IMG/VR virus record: IMGVR_UViG_3300023174_003901
Location: 96,001-160,000 of that record
Strand: one strand, 5' to 3'
DNA from: a virus
Lineage: Duplodnaviria; Caudoviricetes
DNA length: 64,000 bases
The notes under the pieces are model-generated. The model did no database searches. It was given only the letters and a program-made list of their open reading frames with translations, and had not been told where the DNA came from. Numbering within the stretch: position 1 is the stretch's first letter; the number at the start of each line of letters is the position of its first letter. This document shows positions 3,145 through 15,086 of this stretch, piece after piece. The translations under genes and the position numbers were made by a program.

Positions 3145-3205
3145 CAATGTCTCCTTGACATACATATACAACGCCATAGCCCTACAAAGGGTTTACATAG
3201 TCAAA

Positions 3206-3231
3206 AAAATAGGCTCCGAAGAGCCTATTTT
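3206..3231 (-). terminator. intrinsic terminator after tmRNA
   Basis: AAAATAGGCTC-TTCG-GAGCCTATTTT followed by a T run on minus strand. Confidence 0.85.
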
Positions 3232-3232
3232 G

Positions 3233-3565
3233 GTGGTTTCTGTTACGAGGTATTTCCTACCCTAGGCGGCTGTTAAGCGGCCAATGCGAACTGTTCGTCG
3301 TTTGCTTTTACGTTTTTTGTTGTCTTCGGCCAGGAACTCCCAACCCTACGGCTTCCACATTGCCGAGCGCCATTACCCCTACTCTTTGCCCTGTCGAAAC
3401 TATGCAGGCCCATCAAAAAAAGAAATGTAATATGATGACAAATATTAATAGTGTTATTACTACTACATCACATGTTCTACATTTGTCCATAACATATCCT
3501 CTTTTGGTGGACCTGGGGGGATTCGCACCCCCGTCCAGAACACTTTTCTTGATAACAGTTTACGC
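3233..3565 (-). ncRNA. ssrA: circularly permuted (two-piece) tmRNA
   Basis: Acceptor piece (T-arm ...CAGGTCC-A-CCA ending at 3505) precedes the coding piece (5' GGGCCTG at 3411); 7-bp acceptor stem with G3.U70; tag frame 3305-3273 = ANDEQFALAA*. Outer boundaries approximate. Confidence 0.93.
3413..3490 (-). CDS. 25-aa hydrophobic peptide inside the tmRNA intervening segment
   Basis: SD GAGGA then MDKCRTCDVVVITLLIFVIILHFFF*; stop ends 1 nt before tmRNA G1. Confidence 0.5.
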   Translation of the reverse strand: MDKCRTCDVVVITLLIFVIILHFFF

Positions 3566-3579
3566 TGTTTGAGTATTTA

Positions 3580-3873
3580 TTATTGATAAATCACTACGTC
3601 TTGGAAGTCTTCACCGTTGACACAGAGTGCGTATTCACGTTTGGCATTATAGCCTTTCTTTAGCACAACCATACCGTCTGCTGTGGTAAAGATTACTTTG
3701 GTACCAATGGTCATACGACCTAGACCCAATTCTCTACGCTCAAATTCAGGATCGTTCATGATCTTGCCACTGCCAAAATCAATACCGTTGTAAACAGCAG
3801 GCACTCGCTCGCCGTTGACCAATAGTACGTATTGGCTGTTTTTGACTAACTTGCTAGGGATAATCTTACGCAT
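3580..3873 (-). CDS. hypothetical protein
   Basis: 97-aa ORF with SD AAGGAA, below a sigma70 promoter. Confidence 0.7.
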   Translation of the reverse strand: MRKIIPSKLVKNSQYVLLVNGERVPAVYNGIDFGSGKIMNDPEFERRELGLGRMTIGTKVIFTTADGMVVLKKGYNAKREYALCVNGEDFQDVVIYQ

Positions 3874-3903: not shown

Positions 3904-3933
3904 ATTATAGCATATGAACCATTAAATGGTCAA
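3904..3933 (-). promoter_or_regulatory. sigma70-type promoter
   Basis: TTGACC-N18-TATAAT with extended TG. Confidence 0.7.
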
Positions 3934-3972: not shown

Positions 3973-4638
3973 TTAGTTGCCAGCCCAAGGGTCATTAAAT
4001 ACCGGAATCCATCCTCGATACATGGTGTTTGAAGCAATGTCTAAATCGTCTACATTGTGCTCGCTACCAACTAGTTCACGAGCATCCTCTAGAGATTTAT
4101 ACACTTGACGTACACCAGGCCCGTATTTTTGGTCAAAAAATTCTTGGTTATTTTGCGTTTGCCAAAAGTCCCGATTTGGATCATACTTGGGACCTAGTTT
4201 GGTTGTTTTGTTTAAGAAAGGAATATTGACAGGTTCGGGTGACAGTTTCTCGGTGGGAATCATAATCCAATCACTTTTGCCTACCCGCACAGTACGGACC
4301 GGACCAAATCTCGGAAAATGTCGTCGGATGGCTGGATCTTGTATTTTAGCAACGAAATTCACAAATTCAACTGGATTACTTGTGTCCTCTCTAGATCCGG
4401 GTGTGTTTTTTTTGTAAAATTTTATTACCTGATTATTTTTTTCCGCCACCACAGCATAACTACCTTTGCCTAGTGTGTTCCATCCACGCTCACGCAAGAA
4501 GTTAACTATTTCATCTTTTTCTCCGGGCCACACGCCTTGGACCCTACCTGCCGCTGGTGTCTGGACCAGGGAACTTGGGTTGGCTATCTCATTTAATACA
4601 TTAATATTAGACTCGGTGAAGATTTCTTTAAAACGCAT
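3973..4638 (-). CDS. late hypothetical protein with kinase-like motifs
   Basis: Start MRFKEIFTE 4 nt after TAAATA; LGKGSYAVV, VIK, degenerate DLxxxN, NDP. Confidence 0.55.
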   Translation of the reverse strand: MRFKEIFTESNINVLNEIANPSSLVQTPAAGRVQGVWPGEKDEIVNFLRERGWNTLGKGSYAVVAEKNNQVIKFYKKNTPGSREDTSNPVEFVNFVAKIQDPAIRRHFPRFGPVRTVRVGKSDWIMIPTEKLSPEPVNIPFLNKTTKLGPKYDPNRDFWQTQNNQEFFDQKYGPGVRQVYKSLEDARELVGSEHNVDDLDIASNTMYRGWIPVFNDPWAGN

Positions 4639-4645
4639 GTAGTAT

Positions 4646-4825
4646 TTATTTGGTGCTGAGATGACACGACGCCACAATCTGTTTGTTTTGGGCCCGGAAC
4701 TCTTCACGTTTCTGGACTCGGGCCTGCTCGCATTCTGCTTGGGTTTTGAACTTGGCTTGTTCGCCATACTCAGGCACTGGCCCTAGCACACTAAACGATA
4801 ATACCCAGATCAATGTCCGGCTCAT
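4646..4825 (-). CDS. small hypothetical protein (59 aa)
   Basis: Hand translation MSRTLIWVLSFSVLGPVPEYGEQAKFKTQAECEQAR...CHLSTK*; SD AGGAA. Confidence 0.65.
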   Translation of the reverse strand: MSRTLIWVLSFSVLGPVPEYGEQAKFKTQAECEQARVQKREEFRAQNKQIVASCHLSTK

Positions 4826-4850: not shown

Positions 4851-4926
4851 TGGTGCCCCCTCCAGGTTACGCTCCTGGCTTTCAGGATTTTCAGTCCTGC
4901 ACTTTCACTAGATTAGTTTAAGGGGC
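4851..4926 (-). tRNA. tRNA-Phe(GAA)
   Basis: Cloverleaf, anticodon arm CAGGA-CTGAAAA-TCCTG, encoded CCA. Confidence 0.92.
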
Positions 4927-4929
4927 AAC

Positions 4930-5004
4930 TGGCGGGTCCTGCAGGAATCGAACCCACATCTCCAAGTTCGAAGCATGGCATTCTATCCATTGAACTAAAG
5001 ACCC
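4930..5004 (-). tRNA. tRNA-Arg(TCG)
   Basis: Loop CTTCGAA, GGTTCGA T-arm, CCA. Confidence 0.9.
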
Positions 5005-5012
5005 ATAAGTAA

Positions 5013-5717
5013 ATGATGACAGAATTCATATACACCTTAATCGCAACACACATCACCATAGCATGTGTTACACTGTACCTGCATCGCGGACAAGCACATC
5101 GATCAGTGACGTTTCATCCTGTGATCGAACACTTTATGCGAGCCTGGCTATGGCTCACAACAGGCATGGTCACCAAGCAATGGGTGGCCATACACCGCAA
5201 GCATCACAGATACAGTGATCGAGCCGGTGACCCACACTCACCACATGTGTATGGGATTGGGCAGGTATTTTTTAAAGGAGCGATGTTATATCATGCGGCA
5301 TCAAAAGATAAAGATATGGTTAGTACATATGGTCGTGGCACTCCTGCTGATTGGGTGGAGCGCAACATATACACTCCTCACAGTAGACTTGGCATTGGCC
5401 TGGTCCTTGTGTTCAACACCTTGATATTTGGTTGGTGGGGTATACTCGTCTGGGGCATTCAAATGATCTGGATTCCACTCTGGGCCGCGGGAGTTATCAA
5501 CGGCCTAGGTCATTGGGCAGGATATAGGAACGGAGAAACTCGTGATCTCAGTCGTAATCTTGTGCCTTGGGGCATTGTGGTTGGCGGTGAGGAACTACAC
5601 AACAATCATCACCTGGATCCGGCTAGTGCTCGCCTTAGTAGGCGTTGGTGGGAGTTTGACATAGGTTGGATGTATATCTGCATCTTTAAGAACCTAAGAT
5701 TGGCCACTGTCAAATAA
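5013..5717 (+). CDS. membrane fatty acid (acyl-CoA delta-9-type) desaturase
   Basis: His boxes HRGQAH, HRKHH, HNNHH and hydrophobic segments; only convincing plus-strand gene. Confidence 0.92.
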   Translation: MMTEFIYTLIATHITIACVTLYLHRGQAHRSVTFHPVIEHFMRAWLWLTTGMVTKQWVAIHRKHHRYSDRAGDPHSPHVYGIGQVFFKGAMLYHAASKDKDMVSTYGRGTPADWVERNIYTPHSRLGIGLVLVFNTLIFGWWGILVWGIQMIWIPLWAAGVINGLGHWAGYRNGETRDLSRNLVPWGIVVGGEELHNNHHLDPASARLSRRWWEFDIGWMYICIFKNLRLATVK

Positions 5718-5718
5718 T

Positions 5719-5792
5719 TGGTGCTCTCACCGGGTAACGATCCTGGGTTTCTACATTACCAATGTAGTGTAATGCCTTTATACTATGAGAGC
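5719..5792 (-). tRNA. tRNA-Thr(GGT)
   Basis: CTACA-TTGGTAA-TGTAG arm, CCA. Confidence 0.9.
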
Positions 5793-5800
5793 AATGAAAT

Positions 5801-5982
5801 AAAGAAAGCACTACCTGATGTTTAAGGGTGCGGAATACATGTCTGCACTCCCTTCCCTCCAGCAACATGACACGACTGTGACTGGCAGTCTACCGCGGCT
5901 TTCGCCCGTTCAGAGGCGCTGGATCTAATAAGGTCCCTGGTAGTTAGGCCCATAGTCAATGAGTTTCTAACACGCTTTCTTT
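5801..5982 (-). ncRNA. candidate structured RNA (~180 nt), family unknown
   Basis: Closing stem AAAGAAAGC/GCTTTCTTT, inner stems ACTACC/GGTAGT and TCCAGC/GCTGGA, GGC-GAAA-GCC hairpin. Confidence 0.55.
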
Positions 5983-6017
5983 ACTCAACTTGGAGCGGGA
6001 TATTATCCCGCATTGCT

Positions 6018-6107
6018 TGGCGGAACGTTAGGGAGTCGAACCCTATCAGCGGCTCGTCACCACCGCGGGATTAGCAATCCCGTGCCTTACCATCCGGCCC
6101 ACGTTCC
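6018..6107 (-). tRNA. tRNA-Ser(GCT)
   Basis: CGGGA-TTGCTAA-TCCCG, long variable arm, CCA. Confidence 0.92.
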
Positions 6108-6115
6108 TCTATGTA

Positions 6116-6144
6116 ATTATACTGCAATCAATCTCTGTTGTCAA
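6116..6144 (-). promoter_or_regulatory. sigma70 promoter within tRNA array
   Basis: TTGACA-N17-TATAAT. Confidence 0.8.
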
Positions 6145-6147
6145 TTC

Positions 6148-6223
6148 TGGAGCGGAAGGCGAGATTCGAACTCGTCTATTTCAGTTTGGAAGACTGACGT
6201 GTAACCCAAAACACTTCATCCGC
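6148..6223 (-). tRNA. tRNA-Gly(TCC)
   Basis: TCAGT-CTTCCAA-ACTGA, U73, CCA. Confidence 0.9.
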
Positions 6224-6230
6224 GGTTGTT

Positions 6231-6707
6231 CTATGCTGCCTTGCTCAGTACCCAGTCAAGTCTGTCTGCGGCATAACTTGCGGCAAACGCTCGAGGTTTG
6301 ACCATGGGGATCACATTGCAAGTGCCTTTGATGTAGCCAATGGCTTGATTGACCACTATACTAGACTTGTGCATTTGATCAGGGTTAATGTCAAGGTGAA
6401 CTTCTACTAGTCGATCTTCCAGCACATCTGCCAGGCGCTGAAACAATTCACTTACCTTGTACACTTCGTTCATGAGTCTCATGCTGGGTCTATCGCTACG
6501 TTGATCCCAGTCTTGTTCTCTCACAACTTCTCCAAAGATTTTGCAACCATGGCAACTGTCAATGTGTACCACAACGGCCAGAGCATAGTCAGCGTACCAA
6601 CGTCCATTGACTTTGACACGTTCACTATCACAGCCGAGGTAAACAGCAGTTTCTGGACTTTGTGCATCAATATAGGCTTTGACTTGGTCTAGATCAAGTT
6701 TTTTCAT
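6231..6707 (-). CDS. RNase H-like YkuK (DUF458) family protein
   Basis: YLGCDSE, HIDSCHG, EVHLDIN acidic RNase H-fold motifs. Confidence 0.75.
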   Translation of the reverse strand: MKKLDLDQVKAYIDAQSPETAVYLGCDSERVKVNGRWYADYALAVVVHIDSCHGCKIFGEVVREQDWDQRSDRPSMRLMNEVYKVSELFQRLADVLEDRLVEVHLDINPDQMHKSSIVVNQAIGYIKGTCNVIPMVKPRAFAASYAADRLDWVLSKAA

Positions 6708-6731
6708 ATTTGCTTTCTTTTATTTATAGAG

Positions 6732-6806
6732 TGGTCCGGCTAGCAGGAATCGAACCCACATTCATCGGGTAGAAGCCGACGGTATTATCCATTATACTAT
6801 AGCCAG
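6732..6806 (-). tRNA. tRNA-Arg(TCT)
   Basis: GTCGG-CTTCTAC-CCGAT, CCA. Confidence 0.9.
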
Positions 6807-6972
6807 AATAAATAGGATTATGAGATTTGACAACGAACACGGCATTGAAGCATTGTACCAAGTGGCTGCCGAGGGGGTGTATCAAGAACACTGGTTCTCT
6901 ACTGTACGCAGAGACTTTGTGATTGATCCTCAGTTGATAAATCCCCTACGTGAATTTTGTTTAGACACTACA

Positions 6973-7056
6973 TGGTGCAAGCACCCGGAGTCGAACCGGG
7001 ATGCCATAAGCGGTGAATTTTAAGTCCACTGGGTCTGCCGATTCCCCCATGCTTGC
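6973..7056 (-). tRNA. tRNA-Leu(TAA)
   Basis: GTGGA-CTTAAAA-TTCAC, variable arm, CCA. Confidence 0.92.
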
Positions 7057-7059
7057 AAT

Positions 7060-7135
7060 TGGTCTCCGATGAGAGATTTGAACTCCCGCTTCATGGTCCC
7101 AAACCACGGGTACTGCCAGGCTATACTAATCGGAG
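7060..7135 (-). tRNA. tRNA-Pro(TGG)
   Basis: CGTGG-TTTGGGA-CCATG, CCA. Confidence 0.9.
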
Positions 7136-7374
7136 TTGATTCTTTGCTTGATCCACATGCCAAACAACGTGCCACAGTAGGCACCTAGCAGGGCTGGAAT
7201 CAAGGCCCAATGATCTGCTGTGTAGTTGATCACCGCCACACTGGCAGTAAAGGTCACTGCTACTGACCACCATGCGGCCATCATTGGGCGATTGTCTTGT
7301 ATTGATCTCACAAAGTATACGTAGATCAAGTCAGTGGCAAATACTGCAAAAAAAGTCACAACATAATCTAGCAT
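7126..7374 (-). CDS. small membrane protein
   Basis: 82 aa, about three hydrophobic segments; last 10 nt overlap the tRNA-Pro 5' end. Confidence 0.7.
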   Translation of the reverse strand: MLDYVVTFFAVFATDLIYVYFVRSIQDNRPMMAAWWSVAVTFTASVAVINYTADHWALIPALLGAYCGTLFGMWIKQRINSD

Positions 7375-7388
7375 ACAAACTTTCTAGA

Positions 7389-7462
7389 TGGTGCCCCTAG
7401 AGAGAATCGAACTCCCGTCCTCGGATTACAAAACCGATGTTCTGCCATTTAACTATAGGGGC
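7389..7462 (-). tRNA. tRNA-Thr(TGT)
   Basis: Loop TTTGTAA, T-arm GGAGTTCGATTCT, CCA. Confidence 0.9.
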
Positions 7463-7466
7463 TGAT

Positions 7467-7540
7467 TGGATGCGGGGGACAGATTCGAACTGCCGATGCA
7501 CCTGGCTTATGAGACCGGTGTGGTGACCTCCCTCCCCGCG
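7467..7540 (-). tRNA. tRNA-Met(CAT), initiator-like but atypical
   Basis: CGCGGGG acceptor with C1.A72 mismatch, loop CTCATAA; lacks three consecutive GC anticodon-stem pairs; U discriminator. Confidence 0.8.
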
Positions 7541-7544
7541 GTAA

Positions 7545-7697
7545 TTAACTTGGAATAATATGTGGAATATACGGAACTGCTCTTGGACCACCGTATTGTT
7601 GTTCAAAAAGTTTTTTAGCCTCTTGCGGTGTTGCCGCATAGATACGCTTCTTTTCTTCACCTTGTGGTGTTCTCACAGTTGTTTCATACATTGGCAT
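7545..7697 (-). CDS. small hypothetical protein (50 aa)
   Basis: SD AGGAG then MPMYETTVRTPQGEEKKRIYAATPQEAKKLFEQQYGGPRAVPYIPHIIPS*. Confidence 0.75.
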   Translation of the reverse strand: MPMYETTVRTPQGEEKKRIYAATPQEAKKLFEQQYGGPRAVPYIPHIIPS

Positions 7698-7717
7698 ATA
7701 ATTCTCCTAATATAATG

Positions 7718-7937
7718 CTCTGCGTCCCTCGGCGGTAATTATATCGCATCAGAAATTTCGTCAAGTTGCCCCAACTAGTCTATTCATCACGCACGACCTC
7801 CACCCGCTTCCCGACAGGGACCGTTCTCGTATTGCTAACGCCGGTTGAGGCTAGACCGCAGTATTGCTACTGTGAAGATTCAACTCTTCAGAACCGCCCG
7901 TGTGTGTCATCACACTTCTCATCCTCCGGGACCAGAG
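7718..7937 (-). ncRNA. candidate structured RNA (~220 nt), family unknown
   Basis: Closing CTCTG-GTCCC-GG / CC-GA-GGGAC-G-CAGAG; several GCAA-capped hairpins; GC-rich; no credible ORF. Confidence 0.6.
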
Positions 7938-7959
7938 TATCCAGTGACGCTGGAACGTT

Positions 7960-8037
7960 TGGAGCACTGGGCTGGATTTGAACCAGCGACTTTACGGATT
8001 TGCAATCCGTTGCATTGGACCTCTCTGCCACCAGTGC
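7960..8037 (-). tRNA. tRNA-Cys(GCA)
   Basis: ACGGA-TTGCAAA-TCCGT, U73, CCA. Confidence 0.92.
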
Positions 8038-8056
8038 GTTGTTTCTATTTACATGT

Positions 8057-8085
8057 ATTATACACAATTATCTATTGTGTGTCAA
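8057..8085 (-). promoter_or_regulatory. sigma70 promoter within tRNA array
   Basis: TTGACA-N17-TATAAT; spacer holds inverted repeat ACACAAT/ATTGTGT. Confidence 0.8.
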
Positions 8086-8159
8086 TGGTACCTCGTGACA
8101 GAATCGAACTGCCGTAACCGCCGTGTAAAGACGGAGTTCTACCATTAAACTAACGAGGC
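8086..8159 (-). tRNA. tRNA-Val(TAC)
   Basis: CCGTC-TTTACAC-GGCGG, CCA. Confidence 0.92.
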
Positions 8160-8162
8160 AAG

Positions 8163-8250
8163 TGGTGGAGGTAGATGGATTTGAACCACCGAGGCCCCGT
8201 AGGGCGCAGGATTTACAGTCCCGTGCAATCGACCGCTATGCGATACCTCC
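8163..8250 (-). tRNA. tRNA-Tyr(GTA)
   Basis: CGGGA-CTGTAAA-TCCTG, long variable arm, CCA. Confidence 0.92.
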
Positions 8251-8258
8251 GAATTTTT

Positions 8259-8333
8259 TGGTGGACCGTCCTGGGTTCGAACCGGGGACTGAGGCTTGCA
8301 AAGCCACTGTGTTCCCAACTATACCAACAGCCC
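8259..8333 (-). tRNA. tRNA-Ala(TGC)
   Basis: Loop TTTGCAA, G3.U70, CCA. Confidence 0.92.
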
Positions 8334-8340
8334 AAATTTT

Positions 8341-8414
8341 TGGCGACTCGTGATGGAATCGAACCACCGCTAGAAGTTTTGGAGACTTCCGCACTGCCAC
8401 TATACTAACGAGCC
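8341..8414 (-). tRNA. tRNA-Trp(CCA)
   Basis: GAAGT-CTCCAAA-ACTTC, CCA. Confidence 0.92.
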
Positions 8415-8420
8415 ATATCT

Positions 8421-8498
8421 TGGTGCCCTAGGAGAGACTCGAACTCTCAAAACCTGGTTTCTAAGACCAGTACGTATACCAAATTCCGTCACCAGGGC
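8421..8498 (-). tRNA. tRNA-Leu(TAG), short variable region
   Basis: CTGGT-CTTAGAA-ACCAG; only GTTTT between anticodon and T arms. Confidence 0.85.
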
Positions 8499-8508
8499 AA
8501 AACTATCT

Positions 8509-8583
8509 TGGTGGATGAGAGTAGAGTCGAACTACCACTTGACTCCGTATGAAGGAGGCGCACTACCATTATGCTACTCATCC
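8509..8583 (-). tRNA. tRNA-CAT (elongator Met or Ile2)
   Basis: CTCC-TTCATAC-GGAG arm, GGATGAG/CTCATCC acceptor, CCA. Confidence 0.85.
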
Positions 8584-8587
8584 AGTT

Positions 8588-8664
8588 TGGGGTGCCTGAT
8601 GGGATTCGAACCCACGCATATCGGAATCACAACCCGAGGTCTTAACCACTTGACGACAAGCACC
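8588..8664 (-). tRNA. tRNA-His(GTG)
   Basis: Loop TTGTGAT, encoded G-1 opposite C73, CCA. Confidence 0.92.
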
Positions 8665-8765
8665 ATATAGAAACACACTGCTGATATCAGGCTAACGTTA
8701 TGACATATTGGGTTTACTGCCGTATTCCCAGGCTACTCATAAACTCGCCACAATGTGTTTTTATA
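8665..8765 (-). ncRNA. inter-tRNA RNA with shared AAACACA/TGTGTTT closing stem (A)
   Basis: TATAAAAACACATTG ... CAGTGTGTTTCTATAT arms; fills the His-Lys spacer exactly. Confidence 0.55.
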
Positions 8766-8955
8766 TGGTAGGACCGCCGAGATTCGAACTCGGGATTGGC
8801 AGATTAAAAGTCTGCTGTGATACCGCTTCACCACGATCCCTTACTTTGCATGATCGACGAACTGCTTTGTTTGTCTTTCGATGGCTACCCGCTTTTCTTT
8901 TCAATGCCAATGCAACGAAGGAGTTACGTTGCTTGACGGTCATCTTGCGTTTCAT
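8761..8955 (-). CDS. small basic protein whose frame runs through tRNA-Lys
   Basis: SD AAGGAG, MKRKMTVKQRNSFVALALKRKAGSHRKTNKAVRR; no stop before the tRNA. Confidence 0.5.
   Translation of the reverse strand: MKRKMTVKQRNSFVALALKRKAGSHRKTNKAVRRSCKVRDRGEAVSQQTFNLPIPSSNLGGPTI
8766..8840 (-). tRNA. tRNA-Lys(TTT)
   Basis: GCAGA-CTTTTAA-TCTGC, CCA. Confidence 0.92.
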
Positions 8956-8973
8956 CGCATTCTCCTTAAAAAT

Positions 8974-9047
8974 TGGTACCCCCGGGAGGTAACGCTCCTC
9001 CGATTGCCGCTTATCAAGCGGCTGTTATACTTTTTAACTAAAGGGGC
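8974..9047 (-). tRNA. tRNA-Ile(GAT)
   Basis: GCCGC-TTGATAA-GCGGC; non-canonical D and T loops; CCA. Confidence 0.85.
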
Positions 9048-9049
9048 GT

Positions 9050-9124
9050 TGGTGCCTTTGTATGGAATTGAACCACAATCGCCGGCTTCGTAGACCAGTG
9101 TATTATCCATTATACTACAAAGGC
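9050..9124 (-). tRNA. tRNA-Arg(ACG)
   Basis: CTGGT-CTACGAA-GCCGG, CCA. Confidence 0.92.
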
Positions 9125-9128
9125 AAAT

Positions 9129-9204
9129 TGGCTCCCCAGCGTGGGATCGAACCACGGACACCTTGATTAACAGTCAAGTGCAACTACCGCTGTGCTACTG
9201 GGGA
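9129..9204 (-). tRNA. tRNA-Asn(GTT)
   Basis: CTTGA-CTGTTAA-TCAAG, CCA. Confidence 0.92.
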
Positions 9205-9215
9205 ATAAAAAGGGA

Positions 9216-9276
9216 GAAGCCACGGTTGCAGGATCTAGTGCCTTTTGCAAGGGAAGTATCCAGGCGATGTGGCTTC
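9216..9276 (-). ncRNA. short inter-tRNA structured element
   Basis: Perfect 8-bp closing stem GAAGCCAC/GTGGCTTC between tRNA-Asp and tRNA-Asn. Confidence 0.4.
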
Positions 9277-9285
9277 AAAAAAACT

Positions 9286-9360
9286 TGGCGGTCCCAAGGG
9301 GTAACGATCCCCTTCTTCGAGCGTGACAGGCTCGTGTGCGTCCATGAACACTTTGAGACC
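9286..9360 (-). tRNA. tRNA-Asp(GTC)
   Basis: CGAGC-CTGTCAC-GCTCG, G73, CCA. Confidence 0.92.
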
Positions 9361-9361
9361 A

Positions 9362-9518
9362 AGATATTATAGTCAAGCACCGAGAATGCCAATTTAGGAG
9401 TCCGGTGCTTCCGTTCCAAAGCCGATGCAGTTATATCAGGATCAGTCGCCGGCCGCTGTGACCCGAATAGTGTTGGCGTCCCAACACGATACCTTATCGA
9501 TGCTTGACTATAACATCT
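9362..9518 (-). ncRNA. inter-tRNA multi-hairpin RNA (157 nt)
   Basis: 19-nt arms AGATGTTATAGTCAAGCAT / GTGCTTGACTATAATATCT; internal hairpins GTGTTGG/CCAACAC and CGATA/TATCG. Confidence 0.55.
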
Positions 9519-9521
9519 AGC

Positions 9522-9591
9522 ATATAAAAACACACTGGACGAGGCGACCCTGTGGCCACAAGTTCCTGCTTATCTCCAGTGTGTTTACATA
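9522..9591 (-). ncRNA. inter-tRNA RNA with shared closing stem (B)
   Basis: TATGTAAACACACTGGA ... TCCAGTGTGTTTTTATAT on minus strand. Confidence 0.55.
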
Positions 9592-9667
9592 TGGTAGTGG
9601 GTACCGGATTCGAACCGGTGTGAATGCCGTGAAAGGGCACTATCCTAGGCCTCTAGATGAACCCACC
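9592..9667 (-). tRNA. tRNA-Glu(TTC)
   Basis: GTGCC-CTTTCAC-GGCAT, CCA. Confidence 0.92.
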
Positions 9668-9891
9668 ATATGAAAAAACATTTGGGAACCATTGTGGATC
9701 TCTTTCTGCTTGGCTTGCGAGGCCAAGTCACCACGGTCATTACTGCCAGACGATCCGCCGCTTTTCTGGATCTACTTGTTACAGTAGAGAGCCGGCTTCA
9801 TGACTGGTAGTAAGTGGGTACCCGCCGGTACCAATTGGACACTTCTACCAATGCCTCTAACGGGTCTGGTAACCCTAATGTGTTCTCATAT
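9668..9891 (-). ncRNA. inter-tRNA RNA with shared closing stem (C, ~224 nt)
   Basis: ATATGAGAACACATTAGG ... CCAAATGTTTTTTCATAT; inner hairpins GGTAC/GTACC, TCTACT/AGTAGA, CTTGGC/GCCAAG. Confidence 0.55.
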
Positions 9892-9976
9892 AGTGCCTGC
9901 GAACAGGACTACATATACGTAATTTTTAAAGATCTCTACAACTGTCTCGATCGACTTTGTTGCTTTGTTAAGTTCT

Positions 9977-10005
9977 ATTGTAGCATCAACCGATTTATTG
10001 GTCAA
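9977..10005 (-). promoter_or_regulatory. sigma70 promoter within tRNA array
   Basis: TTGACC-N17-TACAAT with extended TG. Confidence 0.7.
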
Positions 10006-10037
10006 TGCTGAGTGTTGCGTTTTCACAACAATTGTTT

Positions 10038-10111
10038 TGGCACGGGAACTAGGGCTCGAACCTAGAATGACAGAGTCAAAGTCTGTAGTGTTACCATTAC
10101 ACTATTCCCGA
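10038..10111 (-). tRNA. tRNA-Gln(TTG)
   Basis: ACAGA-CTTTGAC-TCTGT, G73, CCA. Confidence 0.92.
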
Positions 10112-10117
10112 ACAATC

Positions 10118-10209
10118 CGGCGGAAGACGGAGGAGTCGAACCCCATCCGATTTCTCGGAACCTGGTTTTCAAGGCCAGTCGCGGTACCAATACCACTGCA
10201 TCATCTTCC
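10118..10209 (-). tRNA. tRNA-Ser(TGA), 3' end encoded as CCG
   Basis: Loop CTTGAAA, long variable arm; ends TCTTCC-G-CCG. Confidence 0.88.
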
Positions 10210-10213
10210 AACA

Positions 10214-10297
10214 TGGTACCCTTGGTGAGATTCGAACTCACATATTATACTCCTCTGTTTGAGAGAGGCGACTTTACCAAAATTTGTCCACAAGGGT
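10214..10297 (-). tRNA. tRNA-Leu(CAA)
   Basis: CCTCT-CTCAAAC-AGAGG, CCA. Confidence 0.9.
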
Positions 10298-15009: not shown

Positions 15010-15086
15010 TGGTGCGCCCAACAGGACTCGAACCTGTGACCAATCGATTATGAGTCGACTGTTCTAACCAACTGAACTATAGGCGC
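15010..15086 (-). tRNA. tRNA-CAT (Ile2 or elongator Met)
   Basis: GTCGA-CTCATAA-TCGAT, canonical D and T arms, CCA; TTGACA-N16-TATAAT at 15095-15122. Confidence 0.92.

Follow-up and report, generated by a model that had tools for sequence, protein, structure and literature searches.

A candidate small-gene cassette in the intervening segment of a phage two-piece tmRNA

The intervening segment (IVS) of a permuted tmRNA gene in the genome of a lake phage is best explained as a small-gene cassette for a 25-residue membrane-type peptide, for which the tmRNA precursor would serve as the messenger. A probability of roughly 0.7 is assigned to this reading. The gene lies in a stretch of 64,000 nt of a virus record, referred to here as the window. 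The IVS of such genes is treated as a discarded spacer, and tmRNA finders and annotators ignore genes there. Moreover, gene callers commonly apply length cut-offs that exclude genes of 25 codons. The findings presented here suggest that small genes regularly occupy the IVS across a large family of freshwater phages, and that the IVS may be a source of unannotated phage micro-proteins, a cargo carried in an essential-type RNA gene without splicing. One transcript would then serve both as the precursor of a stable RNA and as a messenger, with its translation signals inside the processing helix, which would make it a concrete case of translation and RNA maturation competing on one molecule. For the window, the annotation is corrected by the addition of the 25-codon gene.

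The two-piece tmRNA gene and its surroundings

As seen in Table 1, the gene consists of an acceptor piece, the IVS, a coding piece and a terminator. ARAGORN called a permuted tmRNA at 3182-3597 on the minus strand, with the tag ANDEQFALAA, an alanine resume codon and a stop after the tag (reading frame 3273-3305, minus strand). The Rfam model RF04321 (tmRNA_permuted) matched at 3273-3567 over its full length (model positions 1-213) with 118.2 bits against a gathering threshold of 47, and RF01850 matched at 3205-3616, also over its full length (model positions 1-331), with 120.4 bits against 84. The 3' strand CAGGUCC and the 5' strand GGGCCUG of the acceptor helix give the G3.U70 pair, and the encoded CCA of the acceptor piece ends at 3505 on the minus strand. 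The Rfam scores, the order of the two halves, the G3.U70 pair and the degradation tag are all those of permuted tmRNAs, and the window tmRNA is an ordinary member of this family. By analogy with that family, excision of the IVS would occur in this uncultured phage and would leave two RNA pieces. The distance from CCA to G1 is about 25-30 nt in the Rfam consensus, and the window IVS carries about 60-65 extra nt. A contig from an RNA library (run X15) bridges the IVS (3281-3520), with DNA carry-over possible and with ends, strand and transcription unreadable from contigs.

Table 1. Positions of the tmRNA gene, its IVS and neighbouring features in the window
Feature	Position	Strand	Source
Permuted (two-piece) tmRNA gene: acceptor piece, IVS, coding piece, terminator	3205..3567	-	Rfam, ARAGORN
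Acceptor piece (3' tRNA-like half): T-arm, acceptor 3' strand, discriminator A, CCA	3505..3567	-	RF04321 alignment, sequence, fold
Intervening segment (IVS), 93 nt, CCA to G1	3412..3504	-	Rfam alignment, sequence
Closing stem, 5' strand, includes GAGGA	3497-3504	-	Predicted folds
Shine-Dalgarno-like GAGGA, 6 nt upstream of ATG	3497..3501	-	Sequence; family-modal spacing; paired in folds
25-codon ORF and TGA	3413..3490	-	ORF list; kept in four alleles
Closing stem, U-rich 3' strand, last three Phe codons	3416..3423	-	Folds, family-wide pairing
Coding piece: G1 at 3411, acceptor 5' strand G1-G2-G3.U70, pseudoknot region	3232..3411	-	ARAGORN, Rfam, sequence
Terminator-like hairpin, then seven T (minus strand)	3206..3231	-	Scan stem (listed under +), sequence
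AATAAATACT motif just upstream of the acceptor piece	3572..3581	-	Exact-copy search of window
97-aa ORF downstream of the sigma-70-like promoter, ends beside the tmRNA	3580-3873	-	ORF list
Sigma-70-like promoter, 11/12 matches, TG-extended	3904..3933	-	Promoter consensus scan
59-codon ORF, signal-peptide-like start, conserved Cys	4646-4825	-	ORF list, L170 match

The source record (G000) is a 200 kb IMG/VR virus of about 45% G+C. No SmpB gene was found in this record, itself only about 58% complete according to CheckV; the phage may rely on host SmpB, or an smpB gene may lie in the missing part. In a blastn search of cultured phages, the whole tmRNA was without a match, and its tRNA-like domain alone gave weak matches to other phage tmRNAs and tRNAs. 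When 20 kb of the window were searched by megablast, only tRNA-Met of Acinetobacter phages matched.

The terminator-like hairpin coincides with the last RF01850 helix. Upstream of the gene, the motif AATAAATACT has only two exact copies in the window, one beside the acceptor piece and the other at 4641-4650 on the minus strand, 2 nt before an ATG at 4638. Inside the IVS of four relatives (L040, L189, L135 and L153), this motif recurs and precedes a protein that begins with MR(I/F)(K/N)E(I/L). We take it to resemble the T4-type late promoters, and it may be a phage late-type promoter or a cassette junction. A mechanical ORF of 264 codons (3973-4767, minus strand) overlaps the 59-codon gene; its true start is probably the ATG at 4638, which follows AATAAATACT and would give 221 codons. 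The protein of this ORF had no Pfam or PHROG match, and the 97-aa protein encoded next to the tmRNA had no relative in viral contigs. Searches of the genes neighbouring the tmRNA against Pfam and PHROGs gave nothing except one weak PHROG of unknown function. Additionally, 25-27 tRNA genes lie beside the tmRNA on the minus strand (4854-10297 and 15010-15086), and two Rfam tRNAs (4854-4926 and 8977-9047) are missed by ARAGORN. The tRNA array is interleaved with protein ORFs of the same strand that have Shine-Dalgarno-like motifs (6231-6524, 97 codons; 7545-7697, 50 codons), and mixed RNA/protein operons appear to be typical here.

The reading frame of the window IVS and its alleles

The initial annotation had noticed a GAGGA, an ATG, a 25-codon ORF and a TGA 1 nt before G1 in the 93-nt segment, and sequence and ORF list agree with it exactly. 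The GAGGA occupies IVS positions +4 to +8, the ATG (3490-3488, minus strand) stands at position +15, and the TGA (3415-3413, minus strand) is followed by one T and then G1. The ORF covers 84% of the IVS. The CxxC and the single hydrophobic run that had also been described are both seen in the peptide, in which a polar N-terminus with C4 and C7 is followed by 17 hydrophobic residues. The mean Kyte-Doolittle value is 3.15 for residues 9-25 and -1.15 for residues 1-8. The hydrophobic run is borderline in length and short for a bilayer span, and the U-rich sequence favours Phe, Leu and Ile. The product is predicted to be a membrane peptide, which is probably its nature; we infer from the sequence that the ORF is translated and that the peptide is located in a membrane.

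When the window IVS was subjected to dinucleotide shuffling, 911 of 5000 shuffles (18%) gave an ORF with an early start and a coverage of at least 75%. Therefore, the window ORF taken alone is within chance. It is placed above chance by the comparative data, from alleles and from the family of related phage tmRNAs.

The allele set comprised the window, the IMG/VR contigs L318 and L319, which were found among viral contigs by a codon-degenerate pattern of the peptide core, and two lake-metagenome contigs (run X7) of another study and year. One of the X7 contigs is identical to L318 across the IVS, and the set holds four distinct IVS alleles with 14 variable sites. The window IVS was not seen among the family loci listed first, at least 190 in number. 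A gapped pattern of the window acceptor, the GAGGA start and G1 had no match in viral contigs; L318 and L319 were missed by it because the sequence after G1 is GGTTTCGAC and GGATTCGAC in these contigs and GNTTCGAC in the window.

The Shine-Dalgarno sequence, the start and stop codons (ATG and TGA), the length of 25 codons and the CxxC are retained in all four alleles. The conservation of the ORF in close homologs had been proposed as a check of its coding nature, and the alleles revealed neither a loss nor a frame break. Residues K3, C4, R5, C7 and D8 are invariant, and the variable peptide positions are 2 (D/Q), 6 (T/A/V), 9 (V/L/F) and 10 (V/I). In codons 11-25, 5 synonymous and 0 non-synonymous changes occurred (P about 0.002, given the transition/transversion spectrum). 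The N-terminal third of the ORF has a dN/dS near 1, with no constraint. Three of the five synonymous changes in the core are C/U changes opposite G in the predicted fold of the window, and an RNA helix would tolerate them too. The comparison of alleles and relatives makes it very probable that the ORF is a genuine small gene.

Gene-bearing segments across related phage tmRNAs

The family was searched for in viral contigs with a pattern of the T-arm and the acceptor 3' strand, and more than 190 loci were found, nearly all of them permuted tmRNAs. Each IVS was bounded by CCA and a G1 complementary to the acceptor 3' strand, which gave at least 175 IVS, at least 132 of them unique. Length of the longest ORF was a misleading metric, since frames that enter the conserved 5' region of the tmRNA look conserved; a start within the first 30 nt and a coverage of at least 75% of the IVS were used instead. 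Among the matches listed, such an ORF is present in 39 of 74 unique IVS of at least 80 nt, where shuffling of the same IVS gives an expectation of 10.7 +/- 2.9 (maximum 20, n=300); locus counts are phylogenetically non-independent, but the effect is large.

The presence of an ORF follows the presence of a Shine-Dalgarno-like start. With the window excluded, 32 of 36 IVS of at least 80 nt with such a start have an ORF that satisfies both limits (among the matches listed), and the other 4 hold ORFs of 30-36 codons in an IVS longer than the ORF fills. In the IVS without such a start, the count is 6/37 (Fisher 2e-10). An ORF of at least 23 codons is present in all 36 of the Shine-Dalgarno-start IVS of this length among the matches listed. 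The modal spacing from the Shine-Dalgarno sequence to the start in the family is 6 nt, the same as in the window.

On the reverse strand, only 3 of the 74 IVS among the matches listed have an ORF of this kind. This count bears on the idea that the real gene is a 70-codon ORF of the opposite strand (3360-3572, plus strand). That ORF spans the entire IVS; its frame is uninterrupted in the window, and none of the four alleles breaks it within the IVS. However, this ORF crosses conserved tmRNA helices, its flanks and hence its start and end are unconserved in L318 and L319, and most of the substitutions among the alleles change its residues. A gene on this strand is extremely improbable.

The ORFs of the family belong to 23 unrelated families of 23-151 codons, of which 6 are clearly membrane-type (among the matches listed). 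Their dN/dS is 0.05-0.3 overall, with values of 0.05 (L027/L159), 0.06 (L016/L042) and 0.08 (L077/L131, a 36-aa membrane peptide), and of 0.11 and 0.14 in two further pairs that were sufficiently diverged. Two of the ORFs scored above the Pfam cut-off, one as a GNAT acetyltransferase and one as a member of a CxxCxxCC family. Additionally, the free-standing 59-aa gene of the window shares 51% identity (E 2e-22) with the IVS ORF of L170, which indicates that the same small genes live in and outside the IVS. Judged by these sequence comparisons, the IVS ORFs of the relatives are real genes. The window IVS matches their layout, with a Shine-Dalgarno-like motif no more than 10 nt past CCA, a start about 4-7 nt further on and an ORF that fills the IVS, as well as in the closing stem, the TGAT before G1 and the signs of purifying selection in the core.

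In bacterial genomes, the T-arm/acceptor pattern returned 108 tmRNA calls, of which about 105 were one-piece, from many phyla, and 3 were permuted; this search revealed neither a host nor a series of IVS.

All IVS of the family, with an ORF or with none, start with WAAG and end with a U-rich stretch and then TGAT before G1. The TGA 1 nt before G1 is therefore not specific to ORFs, since it is shared by the ORF-less IVS, and on this family-wide evidence it belongs to a conserved leader and serves as the stop of those ORFs that are in frame with it. The C-termini of the family IVS ORFs are set by the closing stem and the TGAT leader (L002-L194), and many unrelated ORFs end in Ser-Leu or Phe and then the shared TGA. 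Other IVS ORFs stop 12 nt before G1, or run 12-13 nt past G1 into the mature tmRNA.

The two ends of the IVS form a closing stem. Positions +2 to +9 pair with -6 to -13 in 90-99% of 122 unique IVS among the matches listed, and shifted registers give mostly 20-60%. Covariation is seen at +5:-9 (CG 42, GC 31, TA 18, AT 13). This pair is mostly C:G in the ORF-less IVS and G:C or G:U in the ORF-bearing IVS, where it yields AAGGA, and the flip to a Shine-Dalgarno-like sequence accompanies an ORF in 36 of 36 cases among the matches listed. In the predicted fold of the window, AAAGAGGA is paired with the U-rich sequence that encodes the last three Phe, and this helix stacks beneath the acceptor helix. 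In the predicted precursor fold, the AUG region is base-paired as well as the Shine-Dalgarno sequence, and on this model the pairing should lower initiation.

The whole window IVS is predicted to fold as a long hairpin (-19.8 kcal/mol, z -1.97). Its outer stem is kept in all four alleles, and one change converts a G.U to a G-C pair. The inner hairpin is not kept in the other alleles, on which the window structure loses 6-8 kcal/mol, and the pairs G18-C68 and C20-G66 are broken there with no compensation. It can be seen that structure accounts for the ends of the IVS and coding for its interior, because the outer stem is kept and the inner hairpin is not.

These data also bear on the possibility that the IVS is a structured spacer only, that is, a processing hairpin that presents CCA and G1, with the ORF as a by-product of the U-rich sequence and GAGGA as a stem strand. 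The conservation of the closing stem in ORF-less and ORF-bearing IVS alike, the occurrence of TGAT without ORFs, the long hairpin of the window, the frequency of ORFs in its shuffles and the compatibility of several core changes with G-U pairing would all agree with such a spacer. Yet the frame, start, stop, CxxC and core persist among alleles in which the inner hairpin does not, and the flip at +5:-9 goes together with an ORF in every listed case. Moreover, most of the family's ORF-less IVS are shorter, and a length of 93 nt is not needed. A spacer of this kind is considered unlikely, and a small gene is the preferred reading of the IVS.

For the coding character of the IVS, as first proposed, the intact alleles, the synonymous core and the family ORFs all speak in favour; the position of the TGA, by contrast, belongs to the leader motif and is not specific to ORFs. 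Similarly, the GAGGA that was named as a ribosome-binding site corresponds to the motif that starts ORFs family-wide, but it is also one strand of the conserved closing stem.

Apart from its coding features, the IVS behaves differently from the rest of the locus. L318 and L319 are also permuted tmRNAs, and their T-arm, pseudoknot region and tags differ from those of the window. Their identity to the window is 90-91% in the IVS, 72-75% in the 60 nt before CCA, 66% in the first 140 nt of the coding piece and about 60% in the upstream DNA; thus, the IVS is the best-conserved part of the locus. The neighbouring genes also differ. The IVS appears to have been moved or retained as a cassette, because its identity is so much higher than that of the mature parts. 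From these sequences, it may have been exchanged between tmRNA genes by way of the conserved acceptor sequence, or be more constrained, or both, and the high identity could reflect recent transfer instead of constraint.

A metagenome contig (L195) is identical at 118 of 118 positions from the acceptor piece to nt 53 of the IVS, with a flank that is 85% identical to the window in a different arrangement. In lake contigs, the tmRNA flanks also occur around a different sequence that replaces the IVS (run X13, window 3406-3506), and runs X4, X7 and X13 have joints of this type between 3415-3419 and 3501. The replacement sequences are shorter than the window IVS, and one has 40 other letters. Such contigs fit a swapping of the IVS as a unit, as far as their sequences can tell.

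Directly upstream of the tmRNA, L318 has a cold-shock-type gene of 67 codons with the motif KGFGFI (4395-4598, plus strand), and L319 has it in the same place, where the window carries an unrelated 97-codon ORF. The tag that ARAGORN reports for L318 (4587-5039) is unusually long, with 31 residues ending in ANDSRFALAA, and the contig ends soon after. This tag may be spurious, caused by an insertion ahead of the normal resume point.

Proposed expression and comparison with known systems

If the IVS is a small gene, its precursor RNA would start at the strong sigma-70-like promoter (3933-3904), and then also carry the 97-aa ORF, or at AATAAATACT, and would end at the terminator (3231-3206). The ribosome-binding site would start 4 nt past the encoded CCA. 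A ribosome would load co-transcriptionally, before the complementary U-rich strand is made 80 nt later, or when the stem breathes; since GAGGA pairs with the codons of the last three Phe, initiation would occur mainly during synthesis or breathing. The peptide is too short to exit the ribosome tunnel before termination, and it would insert after release. A terminating ribosome at the TGA would briefly cover the acceptor 5' strand. After its release, the closing stem and the acceptor helix would form and would hide the Shine-Dalgarno sequence, and RNase P at G1 together with 3' trimming at CCA would free the IVS. Processing of the tmRNA 5' end by RNase P is described in the relevant passage of PMC3985003, and for the removal of the IVS in two-piece tmRNAs PMC9004378 and PMC11915505, in their passages on this step, cite the literature. 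On the predicted folds, a link between expression and processing is structurally plausible.

The placement of the Shine-Dalgarno sequence in the closing stem, and of the stop 1 nt from the RNase P site, where a terminating ribosome would cover the acceptor 5' strand, also suits an arrangement in which the act of translation matters and the peptide does not. The ribosome would keep the stem and the acceptor helix open, and would time or throttle the maturation of the tmRNA. Many ORFs of relatives use the conserved TGA or read a few codons past G1, which agrees with this. However, the residues of the hydrophobic core are conserved through five synonymous changes, and other IVS ORFs, up to 151 aa long, encode recognisable proteins that are subject to purifying selection. 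As the sole function of the ORF, a leader device is decidedly improbable; as an addition, it is compatible with a functional peptide, and the two ideas are not exclusive.

A more tentative extension of the cassette reading is that the IVS could be an autonomous, exchangeable mini-gene, which would spread from one phage tmRNA gene to another, unrelated one by recombination in the conserved acceptor and T-arm sequence and would have its messenger ends made by tRNA-processing enzymes. The peptide would be made only co-transcriptionally, in the short time until the ribosome-binding site is hidden by the closing stem, and ribosomes on processed copies would be rescued by the same tmRNA. Such ribosomes would become tmRNA substrates because RNase P would cut 1 nt past the stop, and inside the frame in relatives. 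If true, a self-limiting loop would exist between the gene in the IVS and the rescue RNA that hosts it.

As a guess, the peptide may act on the inner membrane of the host, like very short hydrophobic peptides of phages and toxins. Type I toxins such as hok and Ibs are small hydrophobic peptides with fold-back mRNAs. The window peptide is likewise short and almost wholly hydrophobic, and its Shine-Dalgarno sequence would be hidden where the 5' end of the short RNA pairs with the 3' end, but the resemblance is one of design only. There is no sequence relation, and the window peptide is not assigned to the type I toxins.

Circularly permuted tmRNA genes of bacteria were described by Keiler, Shapiro and Williams in 2000 (PMC16621) and by Sharkady and Williams in 2004 (PMC516066), as cited in PMC9004378, and according to the section of PMC11915505 on two-piece tmRNAs the IVS is absent from the mature RNA. 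The window gene shares with the bacterial genes the order of the pieces, the G3.U70 pair, the T-arm and a tag of the ANDxxxALAA type. Compared with the Rfam consensus, in which about 25-30 nt separate CCA from G1 and no gene is described between them, the 93 nt of the window consist almost entirely of the putative ribosome-binding site and the ORF.

Two-piece tmRNAs of phages are already known. Among 133 unique phage tmRNA structures, 53 were two-piece, nearly all from marine or aquatic samples (PMC9004378). The OM43 phage Melnitz and its relatives (PMC9004378) likewise carry a permuted tmRNA on a phage genome from an aquatic setting. The Melnitz paper (PMC9004378) reports a glutamine riboswitch within the 3' domain and says nothing of IVS genes; the word 'intervening' is absent from its text. 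A full-text literature search returned no description of translated genes in tmRNA IVS, and phage tmRNA IVS bearing protein genes are absent from the literature that was found.

Other cargo of tmRNA genes has been reported. In its passages on such cargo, the newest survey of tmRNAs (PMC11915505) reports that the IVS may hold a tRNA-Ala gene or a repeat element, and the T-loop group I introns that carry homing-endonuclease genes. This cargo, like the window ORF, sits in portions of the tmRNA gene that the mature RNA lacks. The IVS cargo of those passages is an RNA gene or a repeat and not a translated small gene, and they mention no protein genes in the IVS. Cargo in T-loop introns needs splicing, whereas the IVS leaves by ordinary end-processing.

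The nearest published analogue that was verified, as the relevant passages of PMC4990558 describe it, is the IVS in helix 45 of the 23S rRNA of Coxiella burnetii, which contains the S23p ORF and shows selfish or mobile behaviour. It resembles the window IVS in having an ORF in a segment that is excised from the precursor of a stable RNA. According to the same passages, in vitro synthesis of S23p required that both a promoter and a ribosome binding site be engineered, and its non-synthesis was suggested. Unlike S23p as portrayed there, the window ORF has a native Shine-Dalgarno sequence and bears the signs of purifying selection.
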